From an uncultured Candidatus Micrarchaeota archaeon (lineage in GTDB: Archaea; Micrarchaeota; Micrarchaeia; Anstonellales; Bilamarchaeaceae), in assembly GCA_963714085.1 (NCBI GenBank), contig OY970229.1, positions 1,120,001 through 1,184,000 on the forward strand: a DNA stretch of 64,000 bases, written 5' to 3'. A model generated the notes under the pieces. The model had not been told where the DNA came from, ran no database searches, and saw only the letters and a list, made by a program, of their open reading frames with translations. Shown in pieces: positions 36,875-61,214 of the stretch (the stretch's first letter is position 1; each line of letters starts with the position of its first letter). Made by a program: the position numbers and the translations under genes.

Positions 36875-38158
36875 TCAGCCGCTGCCTGCTTCATTTCCAG
36901 CTGATCTAAACCGGGAGCCTTCAAAATCGAATGTCGAGAGGTAATCGGAAATCCGCTCAGCCCTCCGTATCATCCTGAATTCCCCATCTTCTGTCAAAAG
37001 GAATTCTGCGCATCTTAGTTTTCCATTGTACTGGAATCCCATTGCATATCCATGGGCACCGGCATCATGGAAAACGAGGACATCCCCATTCCTTATTTCA
37101 GGAAGGTCCCGGTCGATTGCGAATTTGTCGTTATTTTCACAAAGCGAACCAGTGACATCATACCGATAGTCCCTGGGTTGTTCCTCTTTCCCCAGGACCG
37201 TGATGTGATGATATGCGCCGTAAAGCGCAGGCCTCATGAGGTTTGCCATGCATGCGTCCATGCCGACGTAATGCTTGTGTTTTTTGGTCACGTGCCTTAC
37301 GGCTGAAACAAGGTAGCCGTGCGGTCCGGTGATAAGCCTTCCGCATTCCATAAAAAGCTGCGGCAGAGAGGCAAAGGCACCGGCCAGCTTCGCATACTCT
37401 TCCTGTATGCCCTTTGAAACAAGTTGAAGGTCAACCGCCTTCTGCTCTGGTTTGTAGGGGATCCCTATGCCTCCGCCGGTGTTGATGAATCCGACGGATA
37501 TCCCCTGCTCTGAAAGCTTGGCCGAAATCCCAAGAAGCATTTTTGCGGTATCAACGAAATACTGCGGGTTCAGCTCGTTAGATGCGATCATGGTATGCAA
37601 TCCGAATTTGCGTATCCCTCTCGAAAACGCCTCGTGGTACGCATCGAATATCTGGTCGCCAGGCACGCCGTATTTTGCTTCTTCCGGCTTTCCTATGATC
37701 GCGTTCCCTTCCCTTGAAGCTCCAGGATTATACCTGAAGCATATCAGGTCTGGCAGCCCGGCATGGGTCTCAAGAAAACCAAGGTGGGTTATGTCGTCAA
37801 GGTTTATTATCGCGCCGAGCGCCTTTGCATGGACAAACTCCCCTGCCGGGGTATCATTTGAAGTGAACATTATGTCGTGTCCTCTCATTCCGACCATTTC
37901 CGCCAACCTGAGCTCCGGCAGGGAACTGCAGTCAGCCCCGAAACCTTCATTTTTCAGGATTTCCAGTATATGGGGATTCGGGCAGGCCTTTACTGCGAAG
38001 TAGTTCCTGAAACCCCCAGAAACCCATGAAAAAACTTCATTCAATCCCCGCGCCGTTTCTTTCATGCCTTTTTCATCGTAGATGTAGAACGGAGTCGGAT
38101 GCTTCTTCGCAAGGTCCTGTACTTGTTCTTTTGTGAAAGGTAGGGTTTTTTGTTTCAT
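36875..38158 (-). CDS. lysA: Diaminopimelate decarboxylase
   Basis: YFAVKACPN, GGGIG, ECGR, RPALYGAYH, GSLCENND, GAHGYAMG. Confidence 0.95.
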   Translation of the reverse strand: MKQKTLPFTKEQVQDLAKKHPTPFYIYDEKGMKETARGLNEVFSWVSGGFRNYFAVKACPNPHILEILKNEGFGADCSSLPELRLAEMVGMRGHDIMFTSNDTPAGEFVHAKALGAIINLDDITHLGFLETHAGLPDLICFRYNPGASREGNAIIGKPEEAKYGVPGDQIFDAYHEAFSRGIRKFGLHTMIASNELNPQYFVDTAKMLLGISAKLSEQGISVGFINTGGGIGIPYKPEQKAVDLQLVSKGIQEEYAKLAGAFASLPQLFMECGRLITGPHGYLVSAVRHVTKKHKHYVGMDACMANLMRPALYGAYHHITVLGKEEQPRDYRYDVTGSLCENNDKFAIDRDLPEIRNGDVLVFHDAGAHGYAMGFQYNGKLRCAEFLLTEDGEFRMIRRAERISDYLSTFDFEGSRFRSAGNEAGSG

Positions 38159-38195
38159 TTTAATACCCGTTCTACTACTGCATCAATAATTTTAA

Positions 38196-39492
38196 ATGCG
38201 TTAGGCCCGGGAAATCCAACGTCTTCAGACGTTGGATGAAAGGGCCGGATCTGCTCAGCTCCGTCGAGCACCGCGGAAATCCACCCGGGCAACGCTTATA
38301 AACGACCTTTCCGGCAAATCCTTATGAGAGTGACGCGGGCCTGGAAGTACCGGCTCTATCCTTCAAGAAGTCAGGAAAAATTGCTGAACCGTCAGTTCTA
38401 CGAATGCAAAACACTCTGGAATTCCTTGCTGGATCACACAAAGGAATATTACGAGGAAACAAAGAAATTCCCGACTCGAAAGCAACTCTATACTCTGGCA
38501 AAGGATACGGGGCTTTATTCCCAGGTAGCCCAGAACGTCGCAGACAGGCTTGTGAAATCCCTGAAGGGGGTGATTGCCAGGAAAAAAGCCGGCAGGAAGG
38601 CAGGATTCCCACGGTTCAAATCATTTGAACGGGTGAAATCCCTGACCTATCCTCAGTTCGGTTTCAAGCTCAAAAACAAGCTGGAGCTGTCAGGGATTGG
38701 AAGCGTGGCAATCAGGAAACACAGGGAGATGGATGGTGAGATCAAGACCCTGACCATAAAGAAATCCCCTTCAGGGAAGTGGCATGCGATTTTCACGACC
38801 GAATCCGAAAGAAAGGCACCAGAGAGAAACAAAATGCCGAAAGTAGGGATTGACCTGGGGATAGAAACATTCGCCTATTTGAGCGACGGCTCAAGGGTAG
38901 AGAACCCGCGCAATCTCAGATTGGCAGAGGCCAGACTGAAGCTCGCCCAGAGGCGGATGTCGAACAGGAAGAAGGGCAGCTTGAACAGGGCCAAAGCCAG
39001 AAAAGAGGTTGCGATCGCATACGAGAGATTAACGGACAAGAGGAGGGATTTCCTGCACAAGGCAAGCCGCGCTCTTGTGGAGAATCATTCGCTCATAGCC
39101 ATGGAAGCGCTGAGCAACGAAGGGTTGGCGCGGGGTTTCCTGGCTAAAGAGGTATTGGACTGCAGCTGGGCGGAATTCGCCAGCATGATCAGCTACAAGG
39201 CGGAAGGAGCTGGTTGCGAAGTCGTGCTGGTTGACCCTGCTTACACCTCGCAGAGGTGCAGCAGCTGCGGCCTGATACGGAAGAAAACGCTGGCTGAGAG
39301 GTGGCACGATTGCACCTGCGGTGCATCCATGCACAGGGACCTCAATGCGGCGATGAACATACTCCAACGAGCTACTGGTGGAACGCCAGGAAGTCAGGCC
39401 TGCGGAGAAGAGACCTCTATCCGTTATAAACATAACGGGCAAGTATCTTCAATGAAACAGGAAGCCCACGCCTTTAGGCGTGGGTAGTTCAC
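38196..39492 (+). mobile_element. IS200/IS605-family tnpB-only element, copy A (1297 bp)
   Basis: Ends defined by comparison with copy B; left hairpin ATCCAACGTC-TTCA-GACGTTGGAT; right hairpin CCCACGCC-TTTA-GGCGTGGG ending TTCAC; preceded by TTTAA; no target duplication. Confidence 0.9.
38324..39487 (+). CDS. tnpB: RNA-guided endonuclease TnpB
   Basis: YRLYPS, GFPRFKS, RuvC residues GIDLG / MEAL / HRDLNAA, Zn finger TSQRCSSCG. Confidence 0.95.
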   Translation: MRVTRAWKYRLYPSRSQEKLLNRQFYECKTLWNSLLDHTKEYYEETKKFPTRKQLYTLAKDTGLYSQVAQNVADRLVKSLKGVIARKKAGRKAGFPRFKSFERVKSLTYPQFGFKLKNKLELSGIGSVAIRKHREMDGEIKTLTIKKSPSGKWHAIFTTESERKAPERNKMPKVGIDLGIETFAYLSDGSRVENPRNLRLAEARLKLAQRRMSNRKKGSLNRAKARKEVAIAYERLTDKRRDFLHKASRALVENHSLIAMEALSNEGLARGFLAKEVLDCSWAEFASMISYKAEGAGCEVVLVDPAYTSQRCSSCGLIRKKTLAERWHDCTCGASMHRDLNAAMNILQRATGGTPGSQACGEETSIRYKHNGQVSSMKQEAHAFRRG

Positions 39493-39535
39493 ATAGTGTA
39501 GACACGGCTAAAGAAGTGGAACGATTCCTGGGAAT

Positions 39536-40279
39536 TCATCCCCTTATGAATTTCAGCGTCTTTTCGAGGTCGCGCTTGAAGCCGCGCTTTTCAAAATACT
39601 TCAGGACTATCCCCACGTCGCGCTCGAGGAATTTCTGCGCTGCCGGGTGCTCGAGCACCACTCCCTGCCCGAAGTCTATGAGGAACGGCTGCGGGCCCAT
39701 GAGTATGTTGTATTCGCTCACGTCCGCGTGCACTAAGCCGACCCTGTACATCGCCCTGATGTCCTGCAGTATTGAATCCAGGTCCTTCTCGCCATGCAGC
39801 GGGCCCGATTGCTCCATTGTGGGGTACGGCAGCCCCTCCTCCCCCAGGAAGCTCATGATCAGCACATGGCCGTCCACATAGAGCGGCCTCGGCGCATGGA
39901 CATTGGCCTTGTCGCAGAGCTCCAGGTTCTTGAACTCCTTGTGGGCGAAGGCGCCGGCGATGCCCCGGTCGTTCATCTTGATGTTCCTGAACCTCGGATC
40001 GGCCTCCAGATAGCCGGATTTGCGGAAGAACGGCGCGGTCTCTATCTTGTATATCTTCACCGCCACATAAGCTCCGGACGCGGCCGTGGCGCGGAACACG
40101 TTGGCCTCCTTCCCGGTGGACACCGGGTAGTCCACGGTGTCTATTATCCCTTTCTTTATCGCCTTGGAGAGGATCAGCAGCGTCTGACGGTCGAACACCT
40201 CAGACTCTATCTTGAAGCGTTCCTTGAGCTGGTAGTCCTCCTTCAGCGGTTTTTTTCTTTTGGATACCTTGTGAGCCAT
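39536..40279 (-). CDS. rio1: RIO1 serine/threonine kinase
   Basis: STGKEANVF, VHADVSEYNIL, IDFGQGV. Confidence 0.93.
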   Translation of the reverse strand: MAHKVSKRKKPLKEDYQLKERFKIESEVFDRQTLLILSKAIKKGIIDTVDYPVSTGKEANVFRATAASGAYVAVKIYKIETAPFFRKSGYLEADPRFRNIKMNDRGIAGAFAHKEFKNLELCDKANVHAPRPLYVDGHVLIMSFLGEEGLPYPTMEQSGPLHGEKDLDSILQDIRAMYRVGLVHADVSEYNILMGPQPFLIDFGQGVVLEHPAAQKFLERDVGIVLKYFEKRGFKRDLEKTLKFIRG

Positions 40280-40397
40280 AGTAAACCAGGTATCCCTCTC
40301 AGCCAATGATTAAAATGCCGTTGTTCCGCGCCGCCCGGAGAAGGTGGCTGCCGGGGGCTGGCCAAGTATGTCGATAAGCCCTGCCGATTAGTCTGCC

Positions 40398-40748
40398 TCA
40401 GAGGTTGATTTCTCCTCTTTCCTTCAGTATCTTGGCCTGGAGCGGGTTGTACCTCCAGACTATGTCGCCCTTCTTGTCCGCCTCTATCTCGTAGGGCCGG
40501 ATTATGACCACGTCGCCTTCGCGCACCCATATCTTGTTGCGCATCTTGCCCGGGATCCTGCACATGCGCTCCTTCCCGTCCTTGCACATCACCTTCATGC
40601 GCGAGCCGCCCATGAGCCCGAGCACGATGCCCAGCAGCTCGCCCTCGCCGGGCATCCTTATCCTCCTGAACTCCTCCGCCTCGGACACCGGTCCGGTCCT
40701 CGCCGGCATCGGCCTCCTGTATCCCCCGCTATGATGGTGGTATGCCAA
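40398..40748 (-). CDS. eif1a: Translation initiation factor aIF-1A
   Basis: CKDGKERMCRIPGKMRNKIWVREGDVV, KGDIVWRY. Confidence 0.95.
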   Translation of the reverse strand: MAYHHHSGGYRRPMPARTGPVSEAEEFRRIRMPGEGELLGIVLGLMGGSRMKVMCKDGKERMCRIPGKMRNKIWVREGDVVIIRPYEIEADKKGDIVWRYNPLQAKILKERGEINL

Positions 40749-40752
40749 TAAA

Positions 40753-41175
40753 TCATCCCTTTATGGGCGCCCTCGCGCCGCAGCTCTCGCACACCAGCTG
40801 CCTGAAGCCGTGGCCCATCTCCTGTATGTTGGTGTCGGGCCTCTTGCACTCCTTGCAGATGACGTACCTGCTGACGAAATCCTCCAGCTTGGAGTTCACC
40901 ATGTCGCCGGTGAGCCTCCTGGCGAGCACCATGCGCTCGCCCTGCTGCTCCGCAGGCACGGCAAGCTCCTTGGAGAAGAACTTGATGAGCATGGACGGTT
41001 CCCTCCGTATCTTGTCCGCCACGGCCTTGAAGTTCTTGACTATGGTCTTGTTGCCCTCGGTGAAGTACTCGAATTTGGGCATCTCGAACCTCTCGCCGCT
41101 GTGCTTCGCCTTCTCCGGAAGGTTCTTGTAGACGTTGTCGAGCAACTGCTCGTATTCCTTCTGCTCGTCAGCCAT
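40753..41175 (-). CDS. eif2b: Translation initiation factor aIF-2 beta
   Basis: ERFEMP, GNKTIVKNF, YVICKECKRPDT, CESCGA. Confidence 0.95.
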   Translation of the reverse strand: MADEQKEYEQLLDNVYKNLPEKAKHSGERFEMPKFEYFTEGNKTIVKNFKAVADKIRREPSMLIKFFSKELAVPAEQQGERMVLARRLTGDMVNSKLEDFVSRYVICKECKRPDTNIQEMGHGFRQLVCESCGARAPIKG

Positions 41176-41221
41176 GAAATGGATTAACGGGGATAGAGTT
41201 TAAAAATAGACGATACCCGCG

Positions 41222-42481
41222 TCACGTCCCTTCCTGCCAGCTGTGGAGGTACTTGTCCTGCTCCTTGGTGAGCGTGTCCTTCCTTACGCCCATGGCCTCC
41301 AGCTGGAGCCGGGCTATGTGGTCGTCGATCTCGTCAGGGAGCTTGAGCACCTTCGCGGCCAGCTTCCCCCTGTTTTTCACCAGGTACTCGCAGGCCAGGC
41401 TCTGTCCCGCGAACGAGGTCGCCATGACCTCGGGCGGATGGCCCTCAGCGGCAGCGAGGTTGACCAGCCGGCCCTCCCCGCACAGGTAGACCGGCTTGCC
41501 GTCCACGTCGTACTCCTCTAGCTGGGGGCGTATCGTCCTCCTCTTCCATTTCGCGTTCATTCCTTCGACGTCTATCTCGTTGTTGAAATGGCCCGAGTTC
41601 GCGAGTATGGCGCCAGGCTGCATGCTTTTCACTTCGTCGGTCGTTATCACGCGCTTGTCACCGGTCACTGTCACGAATATCTCGCCTATCTTAGCCGCCT
41701 CGGCCATGGGCATGACCCTGTAGCCGTCCAGCCTCGCCTGCATGGCGCGGAAGGCGTCGACTTCCGTGACTATCACATCAGCTCCCATGCCCCTGGCCCT
41801 GAGCGCGACCCCCTTGCCGCAGTCCCCGTAGCCGCCCACCACGAAGTTCTTCCCTGCGATGAGGGTGTTCGCGGCACGCAGCAGCCCGTCTATGGTGGAC
41901 TGCCCTGTCCCGTAGTAATTGTCCAGGCAATGCTTGGTCTTGTTGTCATTGACCGCTATCATCGGATATTTGAGCACGCCGTCCTTCTCCATGGCGTGGA
42001 GCCTGATCACTCCTGTCGTGGTCTCCTCGCAGCCGCCTATCATCTTAGGGAGCATGTCCTTGTGCTTGGTATGCATCTCCGTGACCAGGTCGCATCCGTC
42101 GTCTATGGTTATGTCCGGATTCGTTGCGATCACGGCTTCGATATACCGGTAGTAATCCTCCTTGCCTTCTCCCTTGTGGCCGTAGACCATGAAGCCGTCC
42201 TTGGCCAGGGCAGCGGCGACGTCGTCCTGCGTGCTGAGCGGATTGCAGCTCGCGAGGGCCACCTTGGCCCCCCCTGCCCGGAGCGTCCTGACCAGAACCG
42301 CGGTCTCCTTGGTGATGTGGAGCGCGAGCCCTATCGTGAGCCCCTTGAATGGCAGCTCCTTCTCGAACCGCTTCCTTATGCTCGCCATTATCGGCATGCG
42401 CATCTCGGCGTAGCCTATGTTGAGGGCGCCCTGCTCCGCGAGCTTCATATCCTTGACTTCGTAATCCTTTCCTTTGTCCAT
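41222..42481 (-). CDS. ahcY: S-adenosylhomocysteine hydrolase
   Basis: SCNPLSTQD, EETTTG, GYGDCGKG, GRLVNLAAAEGHP. Confidence 0.97.
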   Translation of the reverse strand: MDKGKDYEVKDMKLAEQGALNIGYAEMRMPIMASIRKRFEKELPFKGLTIGLALHITKETAVLVRTLRAGGAKVALASCNPLSTQDDVAAALAKDGFMVYGHKGEGKEDYYRYIEAVIATNPDITIDDGCDLVTEMHTKHKDMLPKMIGGCEETTTGVIRLHAMEKDGVLKYPMIAVNDNKTKHCLDNYYGTGQSTIDGLLRAANTLIAGKNFVVGGYGDCGKGVALRARGMGADVIVTEVDAFRAMQARLDGYRVMPMAEAAKIGEIFVTVTGDKRVITTDEVKSMQPGAILANSGHFNNEIDVEGMNAKWKRRTIRPQLEEYDVDGKPVYLCGEGRLVNLAAAEGHPPEVMATSFAGQSLACEYLVKNRGKLAAKVLKLPDEIDDHIARLQLEAMGVRKDTLTKEQDKYLHSWQEGT

Positions 42482-42526
42482 GATAACACCACACAAATAG
42501 TACTATCGGGTTTGAACGGTTGTCTT

Positions 42527-42609
42527 AAAAAAGCTTGAGCGGGACCTCGAACCGCGGCGAATTCCGATTGGCAACTGTCGGAGACTGTTCGAGGCATTTA
42601 CAAACTCCC
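42527..42609 (-). ncRNA. Candidate structured RNA upstream of ahcY
   Basis: Three nested stems; G-U pairs form only on the minus strand; ends in U6; TATA-like element about 30 nt upstream. Confidence 0.45.
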
Positions 42610-42670
42610 AAATGTAATAGAAAGTGTAAAAAAGCGTATATTTATAAATAGTTTTGCGCATAATAACATT

Positions 42671-43255
42671 ATGAAACCCACCGAAGTTACTACCAGTGCC
42701 GGAGTAGGACCGCAGAGCAATAGGGAGCGCAAGGCCCTGCAAAAGGCTCTCAGGGCCATAGGGCCCGCGTCCGAAGGGCATATGTCCGGGCGCAGCCTCT
42801 GTTTGGGCGTATCCGCTCTAATCGGAGCCGCTGCCTTCGGAGTCGCCGTCCGCGGGAGCGTACACAAAGGAAACGCTAAAATAGACACTAATGTTGAATT
42901 ACTGTGTTCCGACCAGGGTGGCCTGGAGTCCGTAGGCGAAAGCGAGAGCGGGAGAGGCCTCACGTTCCGCACCACGGAGATAAGGGACACCGTCAAGGAC
43001 CTCGAAATGGCGGACCGGTTCAAGGATCACTTCGGTTATATGGTGGATGTCGTCTATGCAAATGCGTATAAATCGGCCACTGTCACCTTTGAAGTCGGCA
43101 ATCCTAAAGGAGGCACGTACCAACTCGACGGTTCTCGTCCGATTCCCCTGAGAGACGTACTGGCGATCCCATCATGCGCGGATAACATGAACGAAAAGAT
43201 CAGGGGCGCGATGGAAGTCGCAAAATTCAGGGTTCATCGCAATCAGGACCGCTGA
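42671..43255 (+). CDS. Hypothetical protein with one TM segment
   Basis: 194-aa ORF; TTTATAAATA box about 30 nt upstream. Confidence 0.6.
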   Translation: MKPTEVTTSAGVGPQSNRERKALQKALRAIGPASEGHMSGRSLCLGVSALIGAAAFGVAVRGSVHKGNAKIDTNVELLCSDQGGLESVGESESGRGLTFRTTEIRDTVKDLEMADRFKDHFGYMVDVVYANAYKSATVTFEVGNPKGGTYQLDGSRPIPLRDVLAIPSCADNMNEKIRGAMEVAKFRVHRNQDR

Positions 43256-43362
43256 ACCTGTCTTTTCTGCATCGACGCGGCCAAGAATGAGTCCGATAAA
43301 AAAAGCGTCGTGCGCGCGAGACTGGTCTTTTTTTAATCCCTAACCCTTCAAAAGCGGAAAAC

Positions 43363-45405
43363 ATGGAACTCATAGTGGCAGAGAAGCCGAAGGTAGCGGA
43401 GAAGATCGCCGCGGCCATCGGCACAGGAGTAAAACAGAAGAAAGTCGGCCAGGTATCCTATTACGAAGGCACGCACAACGGCGACGAATTCGTGGTCGCG
43501 CCCGCGGTAGGCCACATATACGGTCTAGCTGAGAAGAAGAAGACGAACACCTACCCGGTGTTCGACATAGAATGGGTCCCGTCCTACGTCGAGTCCAAGG
43601 AGTCGGATTACACCAAGAAATACCTCGACGTGCTGGAGAAGCTGGGTAAGAAGGCGGACGTGTTCGTCTCGGCGTGCGACTATGATATAGAAGGATCGAC
43701 GATCGCGTACAACGTCTTCCGCTTCGCTACCAAGATAAAGGAAGGCAAGAGGATGAAGTTCTCCGCCCTCACATCGGAGACCCTTTTGGAGGCCTACGAG
43801 AACCGGGGCGAATTCGACTACAACAACGCGTACGCCGGCGAGGCGCGCCACATCCTGGACTGGTACTACGGCATAAACCTGAGCCGCGCGCTCATGTCAG
43901 CGCTAAGGGCAGCGCACCGCTACAGGGTGATGTCCATAGGGCGCGTGCAGGGCCCTGCGCTGGACATACTCTGCGACCTTGAGCTGCGGATAAAGGCGTT
44001 CGTGTCCACTCCGTATTGGGAATTGACCGCGGAGGTCAAGGGCGCGGAATTCATGCATTCCAAGGGCAGGTTCCTGGAAGAGGGCGAGGCGCAGACCGCG
44101 CTGGAGCGGACCGCCCAGTCAGGAACGGTCGCTGCGGTCGAGAAGAAGGAGCAGGTGATAAAGCCGAACCCGAACTTCGACCTCACATCGTTGCAGGTGG
44201 AGGCGCACTCGGTATTCAACATTGCGCCTTCCGAGACGCTGGAACTCGCGCAGCACCTCTACGAGGACTCGTTCATATCCTATCCCAGGACGTCATCCCA
44301 GCAGATCCCACCGAGCATAAAGACCAAAGACATAGTCAAGCAGCTCGCCGCCAACCCGGAATACAAGGAGCTGGCAGAGCGGCTGATAAAAGAGAACAAG
44401 ACCACGCCGATCCAGGGCAAGAAGACCGACCCGGCGCACCCGGCAATACACCCGCTCGGGCAGAAGGGCAGCCTGGAAGGCAACGAAAAACGCTTGTACG
44501 ACCTCATAGTGCGGCGCTTTTTGGCGTCCTGCGCCTCCGATGCGAAGAAAGAGAGGACGAATGTCGCCCTGGACGCGGGGGGCGAGCCTTACGAGGCGGA
44601 CGGGGTTGTCACCACGGAACCCGGATGGATAACGTTTTACGGCCAGTATTACAAGTCCGAGGACAAGGAACTCCCCCAATTCTCCAAGGGCGAGAGCGTC
44701 CCACTGAACAATAAGCAGAAGACCAGGAAGGACACCAAGCCCCCGAAGCGCTACACGCAGGCGAGCGTGATATCCGAGCTGGAGCGCCAGCACCTGGGAA
44801 CCAAGGCCACGCGCTCCACCATCGTGGACACGCTGTTCAAGCGCGGCTACGTGGACGGCAAGCCCATAGAGGTCACGGACCTGGGGCTCAAGGTGCGCGA
44901 GGTGCTCCACAAGCACGCCCCTGAGATCCTCGACGAGGCGCTCACGCGCAAGATAGAGGACGACATGGAGCAGATACAGGACGGAAAGCTGGACAAGGAC
45001 ACGGTCATAGGCGAGGGCAAGGAGATACTCACCCAGACTCTGGAGCGCTGGAAGAAGGACGAAGCGAAGATAGGCGAGGAACTCCTTGAGGCGCTGAAAG
45101 CCACCATAGAGAAGGAGAACATGGTGGGCGAGTGCGACAAGTGCGGCAAGCAGCTGCGCATAATCAGGATGAGGACCGGCAGCCAGTTCATCGGCTGCAC
45201 CGGCTATCCGGCCTGCAGGAACACCTATCCGCTCCCCCAGGGCGCGCTCATAAAAACCAGCGACAGGAAATGCCCGGCCTGCGGCAAGCCCATGGTGTAC
45301 GTCATCCGCAAAGGGAAAAGGCGCTTCGAGATGTGCATAGACCCGGGCTGCCCGAGCAAGGCGGACTGGGGGAAGAAGCCGGAGACCCCCAAGAAACAGG
45401 AGTAA
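43363..45405 (+). CDS. topA: DNA topoisomerase IA
   Basis: LIVAEKP, ACDYDIEG, SIGRVQGP, ISYPRT, C-terminal Zn ribbons. Confidence 0.96.
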   Translation: MELIVAEKPKVAEKIAAAIGTGVKQKKVGQVSYYEGTHNGDEFVVAPAVGHIYGLAEKKKTNTYPVFDIEWVPSYVESKESDYTKKYLDVLEKLGKKADVFVSACDYDIEGSTIAYNVFRFATKIKEGKRMKFSALTSETLLEAYENRGEFDYNNAYAGEARHILDWYYGINLSRALMSALRAAHRYRVMSIGRVQGPALDILCDLELRIKAFVSTPYWELTAEVKGAEFMHSKGRFLEEGEAQTALERTAQSGTVAAVEKKEQVIKPNPNFDLTSLQVEAHSVFNIAPSETLELAQHLYEDSFISYPRTSSQQIPPSIKTKDIVKQLAANPEYKELAERLIKENKTTPIQGKKTDPAHPAIHPLGQKGSLEGNEKRLYDLIVRRFLASCASDAKKERTNVALDAGGEPYEADGVVTTEPGWITFYGQYYKSEDKELPQFSKGESVPLNNKQKTRKDTKPPKRYTQASVISELERQHLGTKATRSTIVDTLFKRGYVDGKPIEVTDLGLKVREVLHKHAPEILDEALTRKIEDDMEQIQDGKLDKDTVIGEGKEILTQTLERWKKDEAKIGEELLEALKATIEKENMVGECDKCGKQLRIIRMRTGSQFIGCTGYPACRNTYPLPQGALIKTSDRKCPACGKPMVYVIRKGKRRFEMCIDPGCPSKADWGKKPETPKKQE

Positions 45406-45415
45406 GTGTTTATTT

Positions 45416-46746
45416 GTGACGTGCTCCCACCCTTAAAAGGTGTGGGCTTCCCGTTTCCTCGTCAGCCATTTTGACTAACTCCACGAGCGTTACTTCCCGA
45501 ATGCCCTTCGGTAGCTCTATTGAGTATGTTTATCGCGGCGTTATGGTCCCTTCCGAGTGAAAGACCGCAGTAAGGACAGTCATGCCGCCTTTCATGCAGT
45601 TCTTTCTTGACCATTTCGCCACAATCACTACATATCTTCGTAGTGTTTGCCGGATTCACCAGCATTACTCTCGAACCAGCGCTTTCAGCCTTGTAAGAGA
45701 GTATACTGATGAACTCACTCCATCCTGCGTCATTGATTGATTTTCCATATTGGTTCTCAGCCATCTCTTGAGATGCCAAATCCTCCAATGCGATCATCGA
45801 GTGAGCATGAACCAACTTCGTTGAGAGTTTGTGCAGGAAGTCCCTCCTGGTGTTCCTGACCTTCTCGTGGATTACCGCAAGGCGTTTCCTTGCTTTCTTT
45901 TTGTTGCTGCCGAACCTCCTTTTTCTCGGCAACTGCTTCTGTTTCGCCCTGAGATTATCCTGATGCTTTTTCAGATGCCTTGGATTCTTGAATGCCGTTC
46001 CGTCTGAAAGGACTGCGAAGTTGATTAGCCCCAAGTCCAATCCAACTTGAGAACCATCGTTCTTTTGGACTGGTTTGGCTTCCGTCTCAGCAATTAGAAT
46101 CGCATACCACTTGCCAGACGCTTCTTTTTTCAGCATGAGTGTTTTGATTTTGCCGATGACTTCCCTATGGAGCCTGATGTTGATCTCTCCGAAGGGGCTG
46201 ACTTTCAGCTTCTTGCCGTGCAGAGAAAACCCGGACTGAGGATAGGTCAATGATTTCATGCGGTCTATGCTCCTGAAACGTGGAAACCCTGCATTTATGC
46301 CCTTCTTCCTCCTTGCGACCATGCCGTAGATTGACTTGTTCAGCCGCCTGAAAATATCCTGTGCTGTCTGGGAATACAGGCCGCATTCGCTTGCTTTGAC
46401 TATTCCATTCAGTTCGTTCATGCTGGAAAACTTCTTCTCCTGCTCGTATTTCTGTTTCGTAGCGTCGAGCATGTCATTCCAGAGGTCTTTCGCCCAATGA
46501 AGATGCAGCTGAAGCTCTGAACGTTGTGCTGCATTCGGATACAGGCGGAATTTGTAGGCTCGGTTCATGATAAAATCGCTGAAATGGTCTTTATAAAGAA
46601 GAACCAGCACAGTGCATTTCCGCGGAGGTATTTCCGTGGAGAATAGACCTCTCGTCCAATGACGAGGACGTCGTATCGTACTGGTGCCTTGAACTTTATA
46701 GTGTTTATCCCACCCCTAAAGGGTATAGGTTTTACCACTCACCTTG
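45416..46746 (-). mobile_element. IS200/IS605-family tnpB-only element, second lineage (element C)
   Basis: On the minus strand: TTTAT then CAAGG left end; subterminal hairpins near 46708-46730 and 45426-45446; right end GTCAC. Single copy, so ends are inferred from family conventions. Confidence 0.8.
45462..46568 (-). CDS. tnpB: RNA-guided endonuclease TnpB
   Basis: AYKFRLYPN, GFPRFRS, GLDLG / LEDL / RDHNAA, Zn finger. Confidence 0.95.
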   Translation of the reverse strand: MNRAYKFRLYPNAAQRSELQLHLHWAKDLWNDMLDATKQKYEQEKKFSSMNELNGIVKASECGLYSQTAQDIFRRLNKSIYGMVARRKKGINAGFPRFRSIDRMKSLTYPQSGFSLHGKKLKVSPFGEINIRLHREVIGKIKTLMLKKEASGKWYAILIAETEAKPVQKNDGSQVGLDLGLINFAVLSDGTAFKNPRHLKKHQDNLRAKQKQLPRKRRFGSNKKKARKRLAVIHEKVRNTRRDFLHKLSTKLVHAHSMIALEDLASQEMAENQYGKSINDAGWSEFISILSYKAESAGSRVMLVNPANTTKICSDCGEMVKKELHERRHDCPYCGLSLGRDHNAAINILNRATEGHSGSNARGVSQNG

Positions 46747-46767
46747 ATAAATATTTATGTGCCTAAT

Positions 46768-47541
46768 ATGGGCATGGCAGGATCACAACAATCGCTCCGT
46801 CCCCAGACCCAGATAGCTCCGACTGGTCAAGCCCGGTTCGAGACGAAAAAGCCGCTGGTGGACGCGGTGGTTTTCGGCCTGGATGACACGCTGATAACGC
46901 ACTCATACGGCACCATCACGCCCCCACGGCTGAGGGATGCCGACATACCAGACCTTCTGACGGAGCTCAGGGACAACGGATTAAGGCTGTTCGTAGCAAG
47001 CGGATATCCGCCGGCCAGCGCGCCGGGCCAGGACAACCCAGGTTTAATCAAGCTTTTGACCGACAAGGGGTACACATGCACCGGTAGCGTCACGGAAGGG
47101 GAACATTGGAAAACGGGCTACTCAAGGCCCAATCTAGAGGACCCGGAGGACTCAGGTGCGACGCTACTCATTCCGTCAGCCACGAGCCCTGGGAACGCGA
47201 CTCTTCAAAAGCATCTCCTCATGGAGGAGCTGGGCATCGACCCGTACCTGTTCGAGGCGATATTCTCCTTCCCACATGAGCGCCAGTCCACCATGGAACC
47301 ATACGTCCGGAGCAAAATCGAGATTTACGAGCGCGTCAGGGCGGACACCGGCATAAGCAGCGAACGGATACTGGTCGTGAGCGACAAGGAGGACGAGCGC
47401 AAGGCTGTCGAGGGCATCGGGATCAGATTCGTGCATGTCAAGCGCGCTACCGATGCGGTCTGCGAATCCATGGAAGGCGAGCCGGACATCACGCTCGGGG
47501 AAATGCTCAAGCACCATCTGTTCGGGAACGGCCAGCCATGA
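46768..47541 (+). CDS. HAD-like protein with degenerate motif I
   Basis: AVVFGLDDTL, LFVAS, ILVVSD...GIRFVHV. Confidence 0.65.
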   Translation: MGMAGSQQSLRPQTQIAPTGQARFETKKPLVDAVVFGLDDTLITHSYGTITPPRLRDADIPDLLTELRDNGLRLFVASGYPPASAPGQDNPGLIKLLTDKGYTCTGSVTEGEHWKTGYSRPNLEDPEDSGATLLIPSATSPGNATLQKHLLMEELGIDPYLFEAIFSFPHERQSTMEPYVRSKIEIYERVRADTGISSERILVVSDKEDERKAVEGIGIRFVHVKRATDAVCESMEGEPDITLGEMLKHHLFGNGQP

Positions 47542-58989: not shown

Positions 58990-59383
58990 TGGGTATGCCT
59001 ATAGGAAGCCGGCTATAAAAAGGATATTACCTGCCCAGTCTTGCCGAATAACCACTAAAAAGAGCGACTTATCAGGTAGATACCTCAACTGGCAGCCTTC
59101 TAAACGGAAAATCAGGTACCATTTGCAGTCCTGGTATTGCACATTCATCTAACAGCTGCTCGAACGGTATAGTGCCAGCTTTGAATCTGGGGTACGATTC
59201 TGCAAGTTTTTCCATATCAATGGGCCGCGGGTCTCGAAGAGTAATCCCTTCTTTATCCAACGGTTCTAAACAGACTGAAACCATGTGATGGTTGGTAAGG
59301 CCATAGTAAACATCCCATCCACCGGATACGATCTGCAGAAGTCTTGCTTGCCTGGTTTCTTCAACGCTTAAGTTTCCTTTTAA

Positions 59384-60680
59384 ATGCGTTAGGCCCGGGA
59401 AATCCAACGTCTTCAGACGTTGGATGAAAGGGCCTGATCTGCTCAGCTCCGTCGAGCACCGCGGAAATCCACCCGGGCAACGCTTATAAACGACCTTTCC
59501 GGCAAATCCTTATGAGAGTGACGCGGGCCTGGAAGTACCGGCTCTATCCTTCAAGAAGCCAGGAAAGGCTGCTGAACGACCAGTTCCACGAATGTAAGAC
59601 GCTCTGGAATTCCCTGCTGGAGCACACGAAGGAATACTACGAGGAAACAGGGAAATTCCCTACCAGGAAGCAGCTTTATCTTATGACAAAAGACACGGAA
59701 CTTTATTCCCAGGTAGCTCAGAACGTCGCAGACAGGCTTGTGAAATCCCTGAAGGGGGTGGTCGCCAGGAAAAAAGCCCGCAGGAAGGCAGGCTTCCCAC
59801 GGTTCAAATCATTTGAACGGGTGAAATCCCTGACCTATCCTCAGTTCGGTTTCAAGCTCAAAAACAAGCTGGAGCTGTCAGGGATTGGAAGCGTGGCAAT
59901 CAGGAAACACAGGGAGATGGATGGTGAGATCAAGACCCTGACCATAAAGAAATCCCCTTCAGGGAAGTGGCATGCGATTTTCACGACTGAATCCGAAAGA
60001 AAGATACCCGAGAGAAACAAGATGCCCAAGGTGGGTATCGACCTTGGGATAGAAACATTCGCGTATCTGAGCGACGGCTCAAGGATAGAGAATCCGCGGA
60101 ATCTCAGACTGGCAGAAGAACAGCTGAAGCTTGTCCAAAGGAGGATGTCTAATAAACGGAAGGGCAGCTCAAACAGGGCCAAAAACAGAAAAACGGTTGC
60201 AATCGCCTATGAAAGACTAACGAACAAGAGAAGGGATTTCCTTCACAAGGCAAGTCGTGCCCTTGTGGAGAATCATTCACTCATAGCCATGGAAGCGCTG
60301 AACAACGAAGGATTGGCGCGTGGTTTCCTGGCGAAAGAGGTATTGGACTGCAGCTGGGCGGAGTTCGCCGGCATGATCAGCTACAAGGCGGAAGGAGCTG
60401 GTTGCGAAGTCGTGCTGGTGAATCCCGCTTACACCTCCCAGAAGTGCAGCAACTGCGGTCTTATACAGAAGAAGTCGCTTGCGGAACGGTGGCATGATTG
60501 TCCTTGTGGGGCATCCATGCACAGGGACCTAAATGCAGCGATAAACATACTCCAACGAGCTACCGGTGGAACGCCGGGAAGTAAAGCCTGCGGAGAAGAG
60601 ACCTCTATCCGTTATAAACATAACGGGCAAGTATCTTCAATGAAACAGGAAGCCCACGCCTTTAGGCGTGGGTAGTTCAC
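59384..60680 (+). mobile_element. IS200/IS605-family tnpB-only element, copy B (1297 bp)
   Basis: Same ends, hairpins and length as copy A; preceded by TTTAA. Confidence 0.9.
59512..60675 (+). CDS. tnpB: RNA-guided endonuclease TnpB
   Basis: Close paralog of 38324-39487 with intact RuvC D/E/D. Confidence 0.95.
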   Translation: MRVTRAWKYRLYPSRSQERLLNDQFHECKTLWNSLLEHTKEYYEETGKFPTRKQLYLMTKDTELYSQVAQNVADRLVKSLKGVVARKKARRKAGFPRFKSFERVKSLTYPQFGFKLKNKLELSGIGSVAIRKHREMDGEIKTLTIKKSPSGKWHAIFTTESERKIPERNKMPKVGIDLGIETFAYLSDGSRIENPRNLRLAEEQLKLVQRRMSNKRKGSSNRAKNRKTVAIAYERLTNKRRDFLHKASRALVENHSLIAMEALNNEGLARGFLAKEVLDCSWAEFAGMISYKAEGAGCEVVLVNPAYTSQKCSNCGLIQKKSLAERWHDCPCGASMHRDLNAAINILQRATGGTPGSKACGEETSIRYKHNGQVSSMKQEAHAFRRG

Positions 60681-61214
60681 AATTCCGACTGGCGTGTGAG
60701 GGTTTTTTGCATATTCCGGAGATTGCGTGCTTCCCATTATCTTGTGCTCCTGGTACGTTTCGATATCCGTTCTGTACCCTATCTCCATCAATAACTGCTG
60801 AACGTTTTCATTGAGTTGCGAATATGCGGTTTGCTCGCTTGGAGGCACTTTTTGAAATAAACCATTTTCGTAAAATGCGGTTATTGCTGAGACAAAGTCT
60901 AATTTGTATGTCGTTGTCCTAGGATCGCATATTTGTTCTATAAGCAGTTTGACTCCCTTAAATTTTCCCGCATCACCAGGTCTGACTGCTCCAAGTATCC
61001 GCCTTAACTCCCCAATTAGTTCGACTTTTTTTCGCAGCTAATCGTTGCTCTATTGCCATATCTGGTACTTTGTGAGCATACATTTAAAATAGTCTTTATT
61101 TGCCCGAGCAATCGGTCATTTCCGGACTTCTCCAGCAAAGCTTTCCCGTCCGATTTAGCGCCAAAAGCCTCGATTTTACAAAACGCACATAAATCTTTAC
61201 GCGGAAATAACAGC

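Follow-up and report, generated by a model that had tools for sequence, protein, structure and literature searches.

In this study, we show that two tnpB-only elements of the IS200/IS605 family, carried by a window of 64,000 nucleotides from a Candidatus Micrarchaeota archaeon (C1:1120001-1184000 of genome G000, a single contig of 1.57 Mb with 57% GC and a completeness of 88%), lie at candidate TATA boxes of divergent genes: element A (copy A1) upstream of a lysA-like gene, and element C (copy C1) upstream of a gene at 46768. This overlap with promoters is probably in the main a compositional by-product of the target motifs combined with a mild filter on orientation, that is, a by-product modified by selection. 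Moreover, it is well supported in silico that the left end of family A restores the TATA box that it cuts, a point missed by an earlier interpretation made from the letters of this DNA (the sequence-only reading), which had held that the target motifs mimic the archaeal promoter.

Results

Genome G000 holds six full family-A elements, two family-C elements and a 118-bp mini element with family-A ends (F778), together with one left-end and two right-end fragments; the other family-A TnpBs are 82-92% identical to A1 at the protein level. Genes were taken from our own gene caller (1331 genes) and TATA positions were assigned by distance to the ATG, TATA-like words in 852 upstream regions having a main peak at -31 to -28 of the ATG and a smaller concentration of the same kind, the second peak, from -40 to -37. 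The motif TTTAA is intergenic at 1094 of its 1269 sites (86%), with intergenic DNA making up 16% of the genome. Because TTTAA is mostly confined to intergenic DNA, open reading frames (ORFs) are spared and a TATA position is struck about three times in ten without targeting: 389 of 1264 sites (31%) lie at a TATA position in either orientation, 213 of 1264 at the upstream edge in the divergent and 206 of 1264 in the co-directional arrangement. For TTTAT, 1134 of 2918 sites (39%) are intergenic and 392 of 2920 fall in the TATA window, so that two TATA matches within the window analysed are unsurprising. Of the proposed concentration of the motifs in TATA boxes, what holds is that TTTAA is concentrated outside genes; most sites lie elsewhere than in TATA boxes, and for TTTAT the intergenic share is only the 39% given above. 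The expectation that most ORFs would be spared was borne out; among the rebuilt sites of 37 two-ended elements, one clearly coding ORF spans the junction (L035), with a few doubtful cases.

Homologues occur in 38 of 99 genomes of the family, and 31 of 69 family loci were retained, namely those with a left end similar enough to family A to be placed; the loci dropped had no 5' end or diverged ends. Together with 10 G000 sites and 37 loci found by pattern, and less 4 duplicates, they form a set of 74 sites, in which the left ends of 7 of the 31 family loci and of A3, C1, F272 and F778 were placed by hand. Of the ten left-end sites in G000, five (A1, A3, F778, F272 and C1) are at divergent TATA positions; A5, A6 and C2 are intergenic outside TATA windows, and A2 and A4 are not at TATA boxes either. 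A4 was rejected as a co-directional match, the related genome G001 having TTCTAA there without that spacing to the ATG, and it is kept in the automatic count of co-directional matches (6 of 42 two-ended sites). Over all sites 21 of 74 are divergent matches, so that most insertions do not occupy a fixed promoter position beyond the motif, as promoter targeting would have it. Elements behind TTTAA are divergent at 16 of 53 sites (p 0.012 against all sites and 0.024 against the 199 of 1088 intergenic sites), and their co-directional matches (4/28) show no excess over a background of 16-18%. Among the 42 two-ended sites, 14 are divergent only and 5 co-directional only (p 0.03). The divergent excess is modest, depends on the criterion, is at most about 1.8-fold and must be called fragile; since it is small and one-sided, selection after insertion fits it better than targeting. 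Thus the genome-wide enrichment foreseen by the sequence-only reading appears among TTTAA elements against a background of 17-18% (p 0.01-0.02), but ranges from p 0.002 to 0.24 by setting and is missing from the loci found by pattern alone. Replacement of upstream sequence and of the transcription factor B recognition element (BRE), proposed in the same reading, takes place when an element points away from the gene, and a quarter to a third of the elements are on TATA boxes. A null built from flanks (5 of 91 TTTAA sites) was discarded, as trimming had stripped local intergenic DNA and the enrichment was overstated.

Element A and the lysA promoter

Element A (38196..39492, plus strand, 1297 bp) follows the target motif TTTAA (38191..38195, plus), its predicted target-adjacent motif (TAM), which is identical in six of six family-A copies and present in the empty allele. 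The ends were fixed by alignment of the six full copies, each of which is preceded by TTTTAA and closes with TTCAC or TCCAC. Contigs of runs X3 and X4, from two studies and from related strains about 93% alike, carry the empty allele: they connect 38195 to 39493 and omit 1297 bases, with a 2-base ambiguity. The boundaries of A and its TTTAA junction, both given in the sequence-only reading, are thereby confirmed by the sequence, by six copies and by an empty allele in two studies. The lysA-like diaminopimelate decarboxylase gene, divergent from A (36875..38158, minus; ORF and Pfam), encodes a protein that matches TIGR01048 at 290.6 bits, below the cut-off of 297.9. The reconstructed candidate box TTTAAAA (38190..38196, minus) stands at -38 to -32 relative to the ATG of lysA, on the second TATA peak of G000 and in keeping with the distance of about 35 nt that had been proposed, and its first T is now the first base of element A. 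Scored with a profile trained on 352 promoters (median 8.8 bits), the lysA promoter reaches 10.4 bits empty and 12.4 bits filled. The lysA gene itself (36875-38158) looks recently gained or patchy: its codon score is atypical, and this DNA query gave no match to G001 or G002.

Within element A, the left-end hairpin (38204..38246, plus), supported by the DNA fold and by guide/target covariation, contains the guide tetramer AAAT at 38212-38215. The TATA box of tnpB itself (38296..38303, plus) precedes its ATG by 28 nt, a leaderless spacing, and tnpB A (38324..39487, plus) encodes 387 aa with the RuvC D/E/D residues and the zinc finger intact (NF040570, 295.5 bits; Pfam). The right end (39461..39492, plus) comprises the guide GAAG, a hairpin and the terminal TTCAC, and is the predicted omegaRNA 3' scaffold; the predicted omegaRNA guide (39493..39512, plus) equals the DNA that precedes the lysA TATA box in the empty allele.

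Predicted restoration of the TATA box by the left end

A divergent insertion separates the box from its initial T and from all of the upstream sequence. Family-A left ends start with A or T followed by T, and when read outward they return the T of the box in 29 and the -1 A in 36 of 45 distinct TTAA-family left-end 11-mers. In A1, the first 11 bases (38196..38206, minus) supply the 5' T of the TATA box and the A at -1, along with a stretch that weakly resembles a BRE and whose strength depends on the profile. The A3 promoter scores 11.5 bits filled against 11.1 empty, and over the 15 two-ended divergent matches the mean change is +1.4 bits, with 8 of 15 positive. Simulated on 157 divergent promoters, the A1 end gives a mean change of +2.2 bits, against -4.5 for random intergenic DNA, an effect equalled by 2 of 300 random replacements; simulated co-directional insertion changes the score by -19.4 bits over 154 promoters. 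Ranked against intergenic DNA, with element neighbours left out of training, the 11-mers of TTAA ends are at the 93rd percentile, those of four TTAG ends at the 74th, and those of three bacterial-looking ends, whose contigs are probably bacterial and one of which has sigma70-like spacing, at the 5th. The exact register is the best of 28 offsets with the refined profile, and at 44 non-promoter TTAA sites the left end has a median at the 96th percentile, so the property is borne by the element. In other lineages 13 of 22 hand-placed ends are at or above the 90th percentile, a figure in which hand placement can be circular.

The upstream part of the end is less secure. Under the refined profile its BRE core (-10 to -2) reaches the 75th-80th percentile; when the alignment is made on the TATA box alone, the core falls to the 68th (A1 54th), the register peak is lost, and the comparison of TTAA ends with TTAG and bacterial-like ends gives p 0.07. 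A stronger claim for a BRE in the left end (92nd percentile) was scaled back after these profile controls. Because family A is a single lineage in the tree, the 45 ends are not independent. The C1 end is at the 17th percentile and does not rebuild its box, and the C2 end would rebuild. A bacterial control by pattern scan of genomes (42 matches) gave bacterial rows with neither tnpB nor a suitably spaced TTAN target, and plasmid copies in Methanomethylovorans and Deinococcus, with two left ends apiece, were too few for scoring.

Element C and the gene at 46768

Element C (45416..46746, minus, 1331 bp) belongs to a second tnpB-only family; its tnpB (45462..46568, minus) encodes a protein of 368 aa that shares 48% identity with tnpB A and has intact catalytic residues. 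The ends are given by two family-C copies, which terminate in GTCAC and follow TTTAT and CTTAT. The coordinates and the TTTAT junction proposed for C are correct in the sequence, but because the second copy follows CTTAT the motif of the family is TTAT, so that of the two motifs first deduced TTTAA stands for A and TTTAT is to be shortened. In element C the TTTAT (46747..46751, minus) is the 3' half of a candidate plus-strand TATA box. The reconstructed box, TTTATAAA, is at -24 of the ATG at 46768, within the 20-25 nt that had been suggested; it is off-peak there, and on-peak only relative to the following in-frame ATG at 46774, from which it is at -30, with scores of 3.4 bits for the former ATG and 7.1 for the latter. 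The downstream gene (46768..47541, plus, likely start 46774) is HAD-like hydrolase, with weak HAD matches. The lysA and C-site boxes are both plausible as candidate TATA boxes. The search for an empty allele, which succeeded for A, did not do so for C: in the relatives, an X3 contig and G001, topA is followed directly by pgk, and both C and the 46768 gene are lacking.

The HAD-like gene (46768-47541) looks recently gained or patchy, being missing at this locus in G001 and in the X3 strain. On the other side of C, topA (43363..45405, plus) ends 10 nt from the right end of the element, and upstream of topA (42671-43255) there is a 194-aa ORF with no Pfam match and a low codon score, where the X3 contig differs.

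Target motif and guide pairing

In IS200/IS605 elements, a tetramer in the left end pairs with the target. In the 37 loci found by a pattern internal to the left end, the guide tetramer lies 6-9 bases before the hairpin and covaries with the target (AAAT with TTAA in 29, AAAA or AAGA with TTAT in 8); the junction search used the pairing rule itself, and the expected 4-mer is present in 37 of 37. Seven further loci with the same ends combine an AAAC guide with a TTAG target, a change of one guide base. Among NTTAA targets, TTTAA makes up 53 of 63 elements against 1278 of 3182 genome sites.

According to the accessible passages of the reports cited here, the pairing of guide and TAM is an established principle (bioRxiv 10.1101/2023.03.14.532601), and both motifs recur in other organisms: TTTAA is the measured TAM of a Sulfolobus TnpB (bioRxiv 10.1101/2023.03.06.531077; PMC11043419), the TAM of bacterial ISAam1 (PMC12477157) and an IS605 target (PMC13565253), and TTTAT is the TAM of Geobacillus GstTnpB2 (bioRxiv 10.1101/2023.03.14.532601). 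On a Haladaptatus plasmid, most of eight IS605 left ends have no adjacent TATA-like motif when inspected by eye, and several follow TTAG or TTAC. The use of the motifs in bacteria, the TTAG sister elements and the haloarchaeal ends together argue that the motif was not shaped by the TATA box; with most sites lying off TATA boxes, the idea of TATA mimicry was not upheld.

Classification, TnpB and helper transposase

Elements A and C are ordinary, non-autonomous elements of the IS1341 type. tnpB is the sole gene between the ends, with one ORF per element and NF040570 above cut-off; end alignments and DNA folds show subterminal hairpins at both ends without terminal inverted repeats; and insertion is 3' of a motif of 4-5 nt without target duplication, with clean junctions at A1, A3 and A4 and, for C, as deduced from two copies. 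All eight full-copy TnpBs keep the RuvC D-E-D triad and the zinc finger, and therefore are not nuclease-dead TldR proteins. Elements of the IS607 group have a serine recombinase TnpA and a GG-type junction; this group was rejected, as resolvase matches in the genome were only below cut-off and the junctions are TTAA/TTAT and TCAC.

No Y1 transposase was found in G000 by a motif script and PF01797, at the 88% completeness of this genome. PF01797 matches occur in 25 of 98 family genomes, one of them within a tnpA-only element bearing family-A ends, L279 (G074:C4, about 1380-2075, minus), which has a TTTAG target and an AAAC guide and is inserted directly after a tRNA-like 3' end. An element of this type is the probable helper of the tnpB-only copies. 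An Rfam scan of 30000-55000 gave no matches. No targets of the 10 guides were found in their own genome, the longest TAM-adjacent match being 7 nt; self-targeting or regulatory use of the guides was rejected on this ground.

Discussion

It seems that the position of these elements can be explained by an ordinary insertion mechanism acting on a GC-rich genome. The Y1 enzyme step of IS200/IS605 insertion is established, and a Y1 transposase supplied in trans would insert the elements 3' of TTAA (A) or TTAT (C), with the site chosen by base pairing with the four-base left-end guide; here junctions and covariation are observed, and the source of TnpA is presumed. With TTTAA nearly confined to intergenic DNA at 57% GC, as counted above, many promoter insertions would follow without any sensing of promoters. 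Selection may then act as a filter: copies pointing away from the gene would be tolerated, since they exchange no more than upstream DNA and the family-A end restores the TATA box, and copies facing the gene would separate it from its box and be rarer. Finally, if these TnpBs behave as their published homologues do, TnpB with the guide encoded in the flank would cut empty alleles and so retain the element, and at promoter sites the empty promoter allele would be the target. In the accessible passages of those reports, the DNA that follows the right end serves as the guide, and TnpB cuts empty alleles (PMC11043419; bioRxiv 10.1101/2023.03.14.532601). By analogy, the supposed programming of TnpB against intact promoters would be ordinary homing, expected at any site, and not a promoter-specific programme.

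Several points weigh against this by-product and selection account. The background counts come from G000 alone, and 64 of 74 element sites belong to other genomes; the TATA positions are predicted from our own gene calls and the rule of distance to the ATG. Loci found by pattern alone are divergent at background level (5/30), the set without G000 gives 13 of 46 (p 0.04-0.065), and four other settings of window and ORF give 19, 14, 24 and 17 of 63 (p 0.023, 0.24, 0.002 and 0.13), the values of 0.13 and 0.24 arising with a 100-codon ORF cut-off. Present mobility is unproven, as no TnpA was found in the incomplete genome. Moreover, element C lowers its promoter from 7.1 bits in the rebuilt empty state to 3.8 filled, yet persists.

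The pattern-only count and the two higher p values would suit pure chance, in which the sites are random draws from intergenic TTAA and TTAT with neither enrichment nor selection; this is unlikely in view of the orientation bias (14 against 5) and of p values of 0.002-0.024 in the other settings. Less probable still is that the motifs evolved to resemble TATA boxes, or that the transposase is drawn to open promoters, with TnpB aimed at intact promoters. Both window sites and half of the genome sites are at divergent TATA boxes, the A3 box is conserved in G001, a modest excess appears in some settings, and TTTAA is preferred among NTTAA targets. However, an enzyme that seeks promoters should also strike in the co-directional arrangement, where no excess exists; 53 of 74 sites lie outside the divergent window, a number of them immediately behind a stop codon or a tRNA-like 3' end; and the use of the motifs in bacteria, the TTAG variants with the same ends and the haloarchaeal ends, mostly without a TATA-like motif, all speak against it.

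By-product and selection may be joined by an adaptation of the left end itself. It is possible, and we put it forward tentatively, that the family-A end was selected as an outward half-promoter consisting of a BRE-like stretch and the first T of the TATA box. The return of the T and of the -1 A, the contrast of percentiles among TTAA, TTAG and bacterial-looking ends, the exact register, the rarity of equally good random replacements, the element-borne score at 44 sites and the high-ranking ends in other lineages are consistent with this. Against it stand the drop of the BRE core and loss of the register peak with the TATA-only profile, the single lineage of family A, the circularity to which hand placement is open, and the failure of the C1 end to rebuild; the first two A/T bases may equally be a preference of the transposase. 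A full hybrid-promoter strategy, in which an outward half-promoter in the first 11 bases rebuilds BRE and TATA at low cost while TnpB cuts the element-free allele, is likewise a doubtful though admissible extension.

The closest characterised nuclease is SisTnpB1/TnpB7 of Sulfolobus islandicus, of the tnpB-only IS1341 group (as defined in the accessible passages of PMC4615843 and PMC13565253). As far as the accessible text of the Sulfolobus reports goes, the elements have in common tnpB alone, hairpin ends and insertion 3' of TTTAA and, with SisTnpB7, a right end in TTCAC/UUCAC with the guide directly after it (bioRxiv 10.1101/2023.03.06.531077; PMC11043419). In contrast to Sulfolobus, the relatives here are labelled Micrarchaeota (7 of 9 closest tnpB A loci in named genomes) and the TAM is predicted; the accessible Sulfolobus passages are silent on landing in TATA boxes and on a left end that restores a promoter. 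Geobacillus ISGst elements and their gene-less PATEs, in the accessible part of bioRxiv 10.1101/2023.03.14.532601, likewise share an AT-rich TAM between TnpA and TnpB, a left-end DNA guide that pairs with the TAM and cutting of empty donor joints by TnpB, and the PATEs resemble the 118-bp F778; there the TAM has no TATA meaning because the host is bacterial.

A literature search of titles and abstract openings, with most subscription journals outside its reach, found no landing on TATA boxes or hybrid promoters by archaeal IS200/IS605 elements. Ends of bacterial insertion sequences with an outward -35 box form hybrid promoters. The left end here would be comparable in that the end of an element and host sequence at the target together make up a promoter; unlike the bacterial cases, the host gives most of the TATA box and the element its first base and the upstream sequence, and the likeness is a computational suggestion. 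Even as a by-product alone, the finding puts a number on the benign nature of elements with a TTTAA target in GC-rich archaea, 86% of targets being outside genes, and for the compact TnpBs of DPANN archaea it yields predicted TAMs (TTAA, TTAT and TTAG variants). Were the half-promoter true, it would be an archaeal counterpart of the hybrid promoters of insertion sequences, would explain persistence on promoters, and would make a common upstream sequence for whole gene sets possible.

Other copies and related loci

Another family-A copy in the window, A2 (59384..60680, plus), stands after TTTAA away from promoters and interrupts an AT-rich ORF of 139 codons, in DNA missing from G001; the surrounding 59030-61170 is AT-rich, likewise missing from G001, and carries the degraded ORF that A2 splits. 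Empty alleles of A3 and A4 in G001 confirm the same junction logic, and the TATA box of A3 is conserved in its empty allele; that of F272 could not be located in G001. The mini element F778 (L026; C1:778752-778880, 118 bp) consists of 20 nt of left end fused to a right end, which makes it PATE-like, and sits at a TATA position; its joint is also present in X1 and X2. Its site has one TTAA more than the empty allele of G001, resembling a 4-bp duplication, which is unusual for the family.

Two further pieces were seen in G000, namely a decayed right-end fragment directly upstream of a tRNA-like gene (C1:1473570-1473661) and a segment similar to the promoter region of tnpB, at a TATA box upstream of an unrelated ORF (C1:1219515-1219549). 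Loci L122, L093, L201 and L064 lie within T-rich tracts immediately behind a tRNA-like 3' end or a stop codon, or else upstream of a tRNA; the sites at tRNA 3' ends and stop codons are a second, terminator-like class. The same left-end architecture occurs with TTAT targets on bacterial-looking contigs (L128, L143 and L147), which suggests that the family may have been exchanged between domains. In L049, L054, L066, L067, L071-L074 and L078, placed by hand, the spacer between motif and tetramer is 26-29 nt, against 15-16 nt in family A.

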